This document shows positions 8,189-10,662 of a stretch of DNA of 64,000 nucleotides, piece after piece. The notes below the pieces were generated by a model, which made no database searches, had not been told where the DNA came from, and was given only the letters and a program-made list of their open reading frames with translations. The translations under genes were made by a program, and so were the position numbers. Positions within the stretch are counted from its first letter, which is position 1; each line of letters opens with the position of its first letter. Source of the DNA: Candidatus Babeliales bacterium (GTDB taxonomy: Bacteria; Babelota; Babeliae; Babelales; JANWKD01); NCBI GenBank assembly GCA_963722255.1, contig CAVRJO010000001.1, forward strand, positions 576,001 to 640,000, in the 5' to 3' direction.

Positions 8189-9643
8189 TTACTTTTCCAC
8201 TTCTTTATTTTTTTTAACACGCGCTGTAACGACTTTTGCAAAGGTAGGAAAATCAAATAATTTTAACTTAGTGCTGGTATGTTTTCGTAGAAACAACCTA
8301 CGCTGATCAGGAAATTCTTTATAATCCAACGTCGCAATAGCTGAAATATATTCTTCATTGATCTCCGCTAAACATTTTTTTGACGCAGTATCAATCACTT
8401 TTAATGTACCTAAATTATCTATAACAATAAGCGATGGATCCAATGCTGCTAATGCATATATAACATCAGTACAAATTTTTTGTTCTTCATGCCCTGAAGA
8501 ATCATATTGCATGAGAATATTATCACCAATGAAAATTTTATTATTGAGGAATAGCAATTTTGAGACTTTATTGTTTTGCTTTTGTATTGTTTTAATGCAT
8601 TGATAGCTATCAACATTCCAAAATTTAATAGTTCTTGAACTTGATACTAAAATACCACGTGGCAACAATAACAAATCTTTAACTCCAACCTTATCATCTT
8701 CTATACAGTGTAATAGTGTACCATCTTTACTTGCTACTATTTGAATACCAAATTCTAGAGCTACAGCAATCCGATCTTTATCGATAAATCTTATTGCTCG
8801 GGGTTCCGAAAGCATACCAAACTTAATTTTCCAACATGGTTCTGAACTAGTACCCGCACTATCAAATAATACAATATGGCCAAATATATTTCCTGTTGCA
8901 ACTAATTTTTTATACTTTTCAATAATCTTAGACGAATGAATATTATCATGAAAACAATGTAAAGATTCCATATAATTATCTAGGCCATAAACACACAGTG
9001 TCTCATCTGCAAAAGCTAATAATAACTTTCTTTTTTTTAGTTTAATTCCTTCAATAGTCTTTTTATAGTCGATTTTTTTAGACTCAATAACAAATGCATC
9101 ATCAGACCATGCAAACTCTTCTTTAATGCGATGCGCAATTGACTGGGGTAGAGTTTCTAATATTTCTAAATACTCAGATTGATTATTTTCATTAATGGTC
9201 GACAGTTGCTTAATTGCTAAAGAAATGAGCCGTTGGACATTAACATCTGAATCACAAACAATTCTTACTGCGTCATTAAACCATGTATAAAATATTGGAT
9301 TACCCATATCATTCAGCTTTTGCCATCGATGCTTATTTTCATCATAAACTTCAACTTCTCGATCATTGAATGCAAATCTTGCTTTATGAAGTTTAAAAGC
9401 ACAAAAAAGGTCTCTGAGCGCTTCTATTGTCTCTTCAAAAGTTTCAGGTTCTGCATCCAAAGCAACCTTTTTTTCTTGTACATATTTTTTCAACTGCTTA
9501 GATAATTTAAAAGTTACCACAGAATCGAGCACGAGAACTTTATCTTTTTGGCGTATCTTTTCCATACCCATGAGTAATGAACTGTGCATAAACACTAGAG
9601 AAGAAACAATCAAAAATGTGCAATGACGATTACGCTTATTCAT
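8189..9643 (-). CDS. Secreted protein: conserved N-domain + WD40-like beta-propeller
   Basis: Start MNKRNR after AAGG RBS; signal + GME; LVSSSRTIKFWNVDSYQCIKT and GTLKVIDTASKKCL are WD-like; N-domain paralogous to 9802..10662. Confidence 0.75.
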   Translation of the reverse strand: MNKRNRHCTFLIVSSLVFMHSSLLMGMEKIRQKDKVLVLDSVVTFKLSKQLKKYVQEKKVALDAEPETFEETIEALRDLFCAFKLHKARFAFNDREVEVYDENKHRWQKLNDMGNPIFYTWFNDAVRIVCDSDVNVQRLISLAIKQLSTINENNQSEYLEILETLPQSIAHRIKEEFAWSDDAFVIESKKIDYKKTIEGIKLKKRKLLLAFADETLCVYGLDNYMESLHCFHDNIHSSKIIEKYKKLVATGNIFGHIVLFDSAGTSSEPCWKIKFGMLSEPRAIRFIDKDRIAVALEFGIQIVASKDGTLLHCIEDDKVGVKDLLLLPRGILVSSSRTIKFWNVDSYQCIKTIQKQNNKVSKLLFLNNKIFIGDNILMQYDSSGHEEQKICTDVIYALAALDPSLIVIDNLGTLKVIDTASKKCLAEINEEYISAIATLDYKEFPDQRRLFLRKHTSTKLKLFDFPTFAKVVTARVKKNKEVEK

Positions 9644-9801
9644 AAAAATACCTTTTGATAAGAAACTATGCATAATAGAGTGAACGTTTCTTTCAAAAAG
9701 CCCACTACCTACAACAACTTTAACAGTTAAATTTTTGAAATACATAAAAAAACAACTAAACATAGATTCTACGTTTAGTTGTTTTTTAAATTTAAGATTA
9801 A

Positions 9802-10662
9802 TTAGTTACCGGTTTGAGCCGGCCGTCTCAAATGAAGTGTAAGAAGAAAAATATCAGTTTTAAAACTATTCATGACCTCTTTAACAAATCTATCATCTTC
9901 TAAGGGCTCACTCAATTCACTCCCGATCCAAAGTGTCCATTTATTAGCTTTTCTCAAAGCACATAATGATTGTTGATCAACAGGGATTCCTTCCCGATTG
10001 AGCACTTTTTCTTTTAAATAAGCTACAGTTGTAGTATCGCCGACCTTATAATCACCTGCATATTTCAGCTTAGTCTCAATGCGCACCTCATTTGCATGCT
10101 TATACTGCTCATCAAGATCGTTCCAAATATATCGCTGTAGAATACGCTGCTTAACAGGAGCCGGAAGTTCTTCTAATAAATCTAAATGTTTTGTTACCTT
10201 ATTTTTATTTTCTTGCCAAAACTGTTTCCTTGCTAAAGCAATCAATGCTTTGACATCTTCATTTGAAACACAAATAGCTCCTACTGATAGATTAAACAAT
10301 TCATACAATGGATTTGCCCCAGTATCAGCCAAAGTTAGCCATGCATTTTCAGTGTGACTATAAATTGCAATGGACTTGTTATTAAATGAAATTTCTTTGG
10401 GGCTATAAAATTGAAGAGATCCTAAAACACCATATAATAAGGTAACAGTTTCTTGAATTGTTCGCGGCCTTAAAGCCAAAGCATCTTTAAGCGGTTTATA
10501 GCTCTTAACACCATTATTAAAATGTTCTAAAAAAAGGTGCGCTGCTTCATAATCAGTTAATAACTCCTCTTGCCTTGGCTTTTCATGCGTATAATCTTCC
10601 ATAGCCACTAAAGAGCATGTCATAAAGCCCATGATGCAAAAACTGAAAAATGACAATTTCAT
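9802..10662 (-). CDS. Secreted protein with C-terminal ubiquitin-like domain
   Basis: TTVAYLKEKVLNREGIPVDQQSL...LEDDR...LLTLHLR aligns with ubiquitin [22 protein letters not shown]...LEDGR...LHLVLRLR; no terminal GG. Confidence 0.85.
   Translation of the reverse strand: MKLSFFSFCIMGFMTCSLVAMEDYTHEKPRQEELLTDYEAAHLFLEHFNNGVKSYKPLKDALALRPRTIQETVTLLYGVLGSLQFYSPKEISFNNKSIAIYSHTENAWLTLADTGANPLYELFNLSVGAICVSNEDVKALIALARKQFWQENKNKVTKHLDLLEELPAPVKQRILQRYIWNDLDEQYKHANEVRIETKLKYAGDYKVGDTTTVAYLKEKVLNREGIPVDQQSLCALRKANKWTLWIGSELSEPLEDDRFVKEVMNSFKTDIFLLTLHLRRPAQTGN

Follow-up and report, generated by a model that had tools for sequence, protein, structure and literature searches.

The 64,000-nucleotide stretch of Candidatus Babeliales DNA considered here (the window) belongs to a genome of 1.62 Mb with 34% GC in two contigs. 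It contains two tandem genes, A and B, both on the minus strand, which share a domain behind signal-peptide-like starts and then diverge: gene A continues into a predicted WD40 propeller, and gene B into a predicted ubiquitin-like domain (UBL), from which Gly-Gly and Ile44 have been lost. The end of the shared domain holds the box element, a helix with a BC-box core followed by a cullin-box-like segment that begins with Leu-Pro (LP). The features of the pair are listed below.

8189..9643, minus strand: gene A (P0001), 484 amino acids, with signal peptide, shared domain, predicted WD40 propeller and C-terminal PTF helix
9566..9643, minus strand: predicted Sec-type signal peptide of gene A, residues 1-26, with basic start, hydrophobic stretch and mature start ME (by hydropathy; cleavage site inferred)
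9101..9532, minus strand: shared domain in gene A, residues about 38-181, two helices, beta-hairpins and four helices
9113..9244, minus strand: box element of gene A, residues 134-177, BC-core helix with L139, A143 and L147, then cullin-box-like LP..I...I, without the [TSP] cap
8246..9091, minus strand: predicted WD40 beta-propeller of gene A, residues about 185-466
8195..8248, minus strand: C-terminal helix of gene A starting PTF, residues 466-483
9747..9787, no strand: 19-pair terminator-like hairpin between genes A and B, with A/T runs on both sides
9802..10662, minus strand: gene B (P0002), 286 amino acids, with signal peptide, shared domain and predicted ubiquitin-like domain
10603..10662, minus strand: predicted Sec-type signal peptide of gene B, residues 1-20, mature start ME (by hydropathy; cleavage site inferred)
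10117..10563, minus strand: shared domain in gene B, residues about 34-182
10129..10254, minus strand: box element of gene B, residues 137-178, with L140, A144 and F148, then L166-P167..V...I174
9823..10110, minus strand: predicted ubiquitin-like domain of gene B, residues about 185-280

The 524-residue version of gene A given by the open reading frame (ORF) finder, with its start at 9763, is probably over-extended.

The shared domain and its family

The two proteins have about 150 residues in common after their signal-peptide-like starts (28% identity over 180 residues, E 3e-20), and their sequences part directly after a W-x-D motif. This similarity, together with AlphaFold models and fold searches, confirmed the sequence-only reading of the locus as tandem genes with a common N-terminal domain followed by WD40 repeats or a ubiquitin-like domain; its idea of modular secreted proteins is supported in that both are modular and have signal-peptide-like starts. 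The domain is not a genome-wide family here: there are two copies of it in the genome, and the genome searches gave no third.

A word-indexed search with gene B returned only the protein itself and with gene A one homologue, and seven matches, two of them the window's own proteins, came from a full HMMER scan over 1.84 billion representatives. The repeat protein P0009, tried as a relative on the HMMER evidence, was rejected as a chance match. The ESM Atlas search gave one unnamed cluster at 0.75, no relatives were found in metagenome and viral contigs, and the lists of folds similar to the whole proteins were filled by ubiquitin or propellers. The search of PDB sequences with the family profile found no box protein; its best matches, at E 1e-3 to a repeat protein of designed origin and at E 0.01 to LicT, were both rejected. 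The shared domain is new, with no named relative in the searches made.

Within the family, P0005 and P0007 carry WD40 repeats, P0006 a UBL (40% identity), so that the fusion seen in gene B occurs again, and P0008 consists of the domain alone, without a signal peptide in its record. Two further genomes, G003 and G004, contain three family genes each in a tandem array with short unnamed cargo, as in P0011; G004 has two more family genes with WD40-like repeats, one with two domain copies in tandem, and G227 encodes one distant member. The two main subfamilies are firmly homologous: their profiles align with P 96.8% and E 2.6e-10, and the score of 64.8 compares with a maximum of 17.8 over 30 shuffles. 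Weak matches in G237, G063, G122 and G167 were set aside as internal stops, short frames or unrelated long proteins, and one in G136 was also put aside.

In both G003 and G004, the gene directly behind the array encodes a signal-peptide protein with several UIM-like repeats (L040:11610-12500 and L041:11078-12310); its Pfam UIM match, in the G004 copy only, lies just under the cut-off (E 5e-4, 20.1 vs 21 bits). The N-terminal helical part of these proteins looks shared with the family members of 622 and 724 amino acids. At L041:7512-8411, the G003 family member ends in the same residues as the adjoining gyrase B gene, and this common end suggests a local duplication at the insertion point.

Cargo domains and genomic setting

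The AlphaFold model and fold searches support a closed WD40-type beta-propeller in gene A, whose orthologue P0007 exceeds the Pfam WD40 cut-off, and the box stands directly ahead of WD40 cargo in five proteins (P0001, P0005, P0007, L097 and L099). Behind the cargo, members with WD40 repeats or the beta domain have a conserved helix that starts with PTF (subfamily against subfamily, P 94.6% and E 7e-8). The UBL fusions lack this helix; judging by its conservation and the predicted TM-score (pTM), it may fold back on the N-terminal domain.

In gene B, the model and fold searches predict a beta-grasp fold, and ubiquitin-type sequence marks are present. Ile36 and Gln41 are kept, Cys replaces Ile44, an 18-residue insert contains Trp, and Arg-Pro stands for Gly-Gly, so the earlier description of a ubiquitin-like domain without the diglycine holds. 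A three-row profile detected the UBL family in 18 of 261 genomes from the phylum, where the domain mostly stands alone, in proteins of about 130 amino acids with a signal peptide (L002, L003, L015-L026, L029-L034, L037 and L039; up to 3 matches per genome). An alignment of 24 rows was made from P0006 and 23 of the 28 domain hits. The other five hits, two of them partial and three of them near-authentic ubiquitin domains from G235, were not included as rows, but residues are numbered after one of these G235 domains, the reference. The aligned rows have Ile36 in 19/24, Gln41 in 23/24, Ile44 in 1/24 and His68 in 0/24 cases; gene B has Lys, Cys, Leu and Thr at the positions of Leu8, Ile44, His68 and Val70. 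Gly-Gly was not found in the last 15 residues of any of the 24 rows (the two fusions have Arg-Pro and Pro-Gln), and the insert comprises 13-22 residues in all rows vs 4 in the reference, with Trp in 17/24. The G235 domains lie inside tandem signal-peptide proteins (L027:1180-2268 and L027:2289-3170; Pfam E 1e-26) and also lack Gly-Gly.

The Ile44 patch (Leu8/Ile44/His68/Val70) is the usual surface for proteasome receptors. Because this patch is lost, with Ile44 kept in a single family UBL, the proteasome shuttle proposed for gene B is unlikely, and the Trp-rich insert also argues against it. The Pfam scan of the window proteins detected no UBA domain, and Elongin B was not among the 50 fold-search matches listed for the UBL. 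The UBL of gene B and P0006 starts exactly where the mature standalone proteins start, which indicates a gene fusion; since, moreover, the order box, cargo, PTF helix is seen in both subfamilies, the UBL fusion is inferred to be the derived state.

The organism is a small-genome bacterium, likely parasitic in protists; its phylum is described as intracellular parasites of protists in the available text of PMC4776705 and PMC6561590, and the size of the genome and the ankyrin, WD40 and F-box genes that Pfam scans reveal in it agree with these accounts. The two genes need not be co-transcribed, because the terminator-like hairpin stands between them. This hairpin (9747-9787) is a near-perfect 41-base palindrome, single-copy in the window, and could terminate transcription in both directions; a promoter search at the locus gave no excess over shuffles. 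The slot after the neighbouring FAD oxidoreductase is variable, since unrelated genes occupy it in G001 (same genus) and G003, and the shared domain was not found in G001, a 99% complete genome. About 600 bases upstream of the pair, a transposase-like ORF was recognised by eye (11249-11605), followed along the window by a signal-peptide-like WD40 protein without the shared domain (13088-14581), an Mrr-like nuclease/helicase gene carrying one DUF4379 zinc finger and then an overlapping ORF in which DUF4379 recurs three more times (15269-18071), the two possibly one split gene, and an ORF of 1186 amino acids with no Pfam match at E up to 0.1 (19912-23472).

The box element and its counterparts in the phylum

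The strict BC-box was defined as [TSP]Lxxx[CAS]xxx-hydrophobic after the available text of PMC13342108, and its core as the LxxxAxxxΦ type. The core (Leu and a small residue four positions on) is present in both window proteins and in 5/6 of their subfamily; the Cul2-box pattern, hydrophobic-P-x-x-hydrophobic-x-x-x-hydrophobic, occurs in 13 of the 14 members, with Pro and Ile invariant. The Cul5-box sequence LP-hydrophobic-P was not found in the pair, as gene A has LPQS and gene B LPAP, with Ala at the hydrophobic position. In the Pfam search of 12 members (E up to 5), the 25 families shown, out of 27, included no box family, and Pfam SOCS_box (PF07525), which also misses the genome's more canonical-looking BC protein, did not match the pair. 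The motif L..LA...[LF]..LP is found 6 times in the genome vs 0-6 times in 20 shuffles.

The widened family profile matches a protein of G127 (L094, E 0.0085) with a signal peptide, a strict BC-box, an LP helix and WD40-like repeats, and a profile built from this protein and two look-alikes detected such N-termini in 8 of the 261 genomes, the window genome included. When a 15-row family profile was compared with 12 BC/cullin-box-like N-termini, an alignment of 49 columns, BC helix included, was obtained (P 80.8%, E 1.3e-5; score 34.1 vs a maximum of 10.8 in 25 column shuffles), in which L140, A144 and F148 of gene B fall opposite the Leu, the Cys and the hydrophobic residue of the BC helix. The 12 rows were hand-picked, leaving out L105 (a Skp1-type match) and the family members. 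The F-box control gave no alignment (E 0.43; range 0.24-0.43 against the genome's F-boxes). Since the family profile aligns with the BC-like set in the proposed register and the F-box control does not, the box element is likely a derived BC/cullin box.

The LP segment had also been called F-box-like, and it could be supposed that it is an F-box binding host Skp1, by which the pair would hijack a Skp1-cullin-F-box ligase as Legionella AnkB does according to the available text of PMC4209131. The top Foldseek matches of the whole gene A model are indeed the F-box/WD40 receptors beta-TrCP and Fbw7, and LP..I...I resembles F-box helix 1. However, LPxE, the F-box mark, occurs in 1 of the 14 members, the models have a single helix between LP and the start of the propeller or UBL, the profile control speaks against it, and the PF12937 search finds F-boxes in other genes of the genome and none in genes A and B. 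The F-box-like character thus has no support, and F-box function is hardly probable. Elsewhere in the window genome (G000), two F-box genes in tandem exceed the Pfam cut-off, and a further gene has a pair of F-box-like repeats (C2:565083-566912 and C1:517857-519431).

Other proteins of the phylum carry comparable segments. Signal-peptide proteins that start with a strict or near-strict BC-box (L094:1402-2976, L096, L103, L107, L110, L111; G000 C2:91798-93120 and C1:660100-661800) continue into the LP helix and then WD40-like or ankyrin repeats; they are better candidates for Elongin C binding than the gene pair. Skp1-like proteins, present in 26 of the 261 genomes (in G000, C1:503538-508098 (L052), C2:282654-285059 (L053) and C1:222136-223440 (L055)), consist of a signal peptide, one or two Skp1-like domains, an LP helix and a propeller and are likely self-contained cullin adaptors. 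A search for a viral Skp1 found none. On the simplest reading, a single helix-loop-LP-helix element stands ahead of the cargo in three protein types of this phylum: after a bare BC helix, after a Skp1-like domain, or after the new domain with an eroded BC helix, the erosion being partial in the window subfamily and full in G003 and G004.

These Skp1-like proteins also bear on another possible origin, in which the shared domain in its entirety would serve as a built-in adaptor, a strongly altered unit of the Skp1/Elongin C/BTB type that would bind cullin directly. The shared domain takes the position of the Skp1-like domain in the genome's proteins with Skp1-like domain, LP helix and WD40 repeats, and an alignment of 72 columns, from the ANYLD-bearing helix on, was obtained between the window subfamily and 30 post-Skp1 tails (P 27%, E 6.6e-4; score 25.8 vs a shuffle maximum of 12.3). 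The match to the full Skp1-like alignment, however, is not significant (E 0.03-0.11), no BTB or Skp1 family was among the Pfam families shown for the members, the predicted hairpins lie mid-domain with no N-terminal sheet, and the notion of a decayed Skp1 weakened once the profile was deepened. This origin therefore appears quite improbable.

Possible roles and comparison with known systems

In our opinion, to which we attach a little less than an even chance, the pair encodes likely exported proteins, gene A docking as a substrate receptor of a host cullin-RING ligase (CRL) through the derived box and gene B acting as a non-conjugatable decoy. Both proteins would be exported into the protist host, where the last helices of the shared domain, likely a worn-down BC/cullin box probably descended from the phylum's BC/cullin-box proteins, would dock on the ligase. 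In gene A, the box would dock and the propeller pick targets; in gene B, with the UBL module swapped in, the same docking site would be occupied by a ubiquitin mimic. Elongin C as the direct partner of the box is a more tentative suggestion, which the sequence comparisons leave on the doubtful side. The match of the gene A model to F-box/WD40 receptors at the top of the Foldseek list and the box directly before the WD40 cargo in five proteins speak for this reading. Supporting context is provided by two F-box genes over the cut-off and Skp1-like/WD40 genes in the window genome, and by the protein with UIM-like repeats after the family arrays of G003 and G004.

A number of observations weigh against this reading. 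The strict BC-box was found in 0 of the 14 members and 0 of 3 further copies, both window proteins lacking [TSP]; the core is lost in 12 of the 17 copies, including all three further ones, and all G003 and G004 copies have Ala for Leu and Ile for the small residue. The model places the BC Leu in the middle of a helix instead of at its start. Among 1007 ORFs of at least 200 amino acids in the window genome, which gave 841 matches to the Cul2-box pattern, 127 have the core with this pattern and 22 the strict form, so that the box pattern alone proves little. The seed of the BC-like set had itself been picked up with the family profile, and column shuffles destroy helix periodicity, which makes them a lenient control; the window subfamily alone matches the BC-like rows over 21 columns, at the LP helix (P 24%). 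Because the family tail also matches the region after the phylum's Skp1-like domains (P 27-33%), the element may be a general linker. A VIA second look places ordinary propellers, not F-box proteins, first for gene A, and delivery of Sec-exported proteins to the host cytosol is undemonstrated for the phylum in the available text of the literature covered. As to the BC-box plus cullin-box layout seen by the sequence-only reading, the profile alignment upholds its ancestry and register; a canonical box it is not, given the absence of [TSP] from all copies, a core kept in 5/17 and a pattern common by chance.

The same counts may be understood in another way, namely that the box ancestry is real and ligase binding was lost, the helices now forming a scaffold core closed by the PTF helix and showing variable cargo (WD40, a small beta domain or a UBL) for another host target or for export. 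Loss of the BC core while LP..I persists agrees with this, as do the conservation of the PTF helix behind unrelated cargoes (WD40 and a small beta domain), the protein with two tandem domain copies, unneeded for a single docking site, and six G003/G004 members without a recognisable substrate-binding domain. Against it, the window subfamily keeps L-x-x-x-A-x-x-x-hydrophobic despite identities of about 25-40%, and the nameable cargoes and neighbours (WD40, UBL, UIM-like) are parts of the ubiquitin system. We consider such a scaffold unlikely, though it deserves serious attention.

A bolder extension of the docking reading, which we regard as improbable, is that Babeliales possess a mix-and-match toolkit against host cullin ligases, including true bacterial Elongin C-binding receptors, with gene B as a single-chain clamp. 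The box helix would sit on host Elongin C, and the tethered UBL would replace Elongin B or block ubiquitin/NEDD8 handling at the ligase; gene B would then switch off host CRL2/5 complexes and gene A reprogram them, while the phylum's secreted standalone UBLs would be this jammer in free form.

Among known systems, the receptors of CRL2/CRL5 with a VHL-box or a SOCS-box and their viral mimics (African swine fever virus MGF505-1R; orthopoxvirus ANK/BC proteins, available text of PMC13342108) have in common with the pair the L-x-x-x-small-x-x-x-hydrophobic helix and a cullin box of the hydrophobic-P-x-x-hydrophobic-x-x-x-hydrophobic form next to a repeat-type binding domain. In contrast to them, the pair is bacterial, has signal peptides and lacks the [TSP] cap, and its box ends a 150-residue domain without known relative, its core being lost in most homologues. 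Gene A resembles the F-box/WD40 receptors beta-TrCP, Fbw7 and Cdc4 in its helical N-terminal module, linker and WD40 propeller, but has no F-box by Pfam or profile and one helix after LP. The F-box and BTB-box effectors of Parachlamydiaceae, as far as the available text of PMC4209131 describes them, also belong to amoeba-type intracellular bacteria and form tandem, fast-turnover families that join a ligase-docking module to repeats. They use type III secretion signals and F-box or BTB modules, whereas the pair has Sec-type peptides, a BC-like derived box and WD40 or UBL cargo, with 2-5 genes per genome here. By analogy, the pair would work like known cullin-hijacking effectors while failing strict BC-box and F-box membership.

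The UBL of gene B calls to mind BfUbb of Bacteroides fragilis, a secreted bacterial protein of ubiquitin descent; according to the accessible text on it, BfUbb is 63% identical to ubiquitin and antibacterial, whereas the UBL is about 25% identical, has the Trp-rich insert and forms part of a fusion with the box domain. From the UBL shuttle factors Rad23 and Dsk2, gene B differs in having no detected UBA and no Ile44 patch. The likeness to BfUbb raises the question of whether the proteins stand outside the host ubiquitin system, being envelope-resident or acting on other bacteria. BfUbb targets a periplasmic peptidyl-prolyl isomerase (PPIase) in interbacterial competition (available text of PMC11467351), the UBL lacks Ile44 and Gly-Gly, and having a signal peptide says little about an effector role, because 44% of Chromulinavorax proteins have one (available text of PMC6561590). 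On the other hand, the relatives are obligate intracellular parasites rich in eukaryote-like domains (available text of PMC4776705 and PMC6561590), and several other modules of the ubiquitin system are associated with the family; a role outside the host ubiquitin system is very unlikely.

That bacteria take over host cullin ligases by means of F-box and BTB proteins is well described; Chlamydiae were called the sole bacteria with BTB domains in 2014 (available text of PMC4209131), and SOCS-box domains have been predicted in Endozoicomonas (available text of PMC9743535). The full-text literature search, with subscription papers and supplements outside its coverage, found no tested bacterial BC-box or SOCS-box effector. 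The BC/cullin-box-like, Skp1-like/WD40 and signal-peptide UBL families were not named in that search, including the available text of PMC6561590 and PMC4776705, whose supplements could hold some of them.

The locus leads to three families: BC/cullin-box-like repeat proteins (8/261 genomes), Skp1-like/WD40 fusions (26/261) and signal-peptide UBLs without Gly-Gly (18/261). If the box binds Elongin C, bacterial CRL2/5 adaptors would be at hand, and the pair would offer a direct test of the use of a ubiquitin mimic. If the favoured reading is true, the pair would redirect or jam the protein-disposal machinery of the host.

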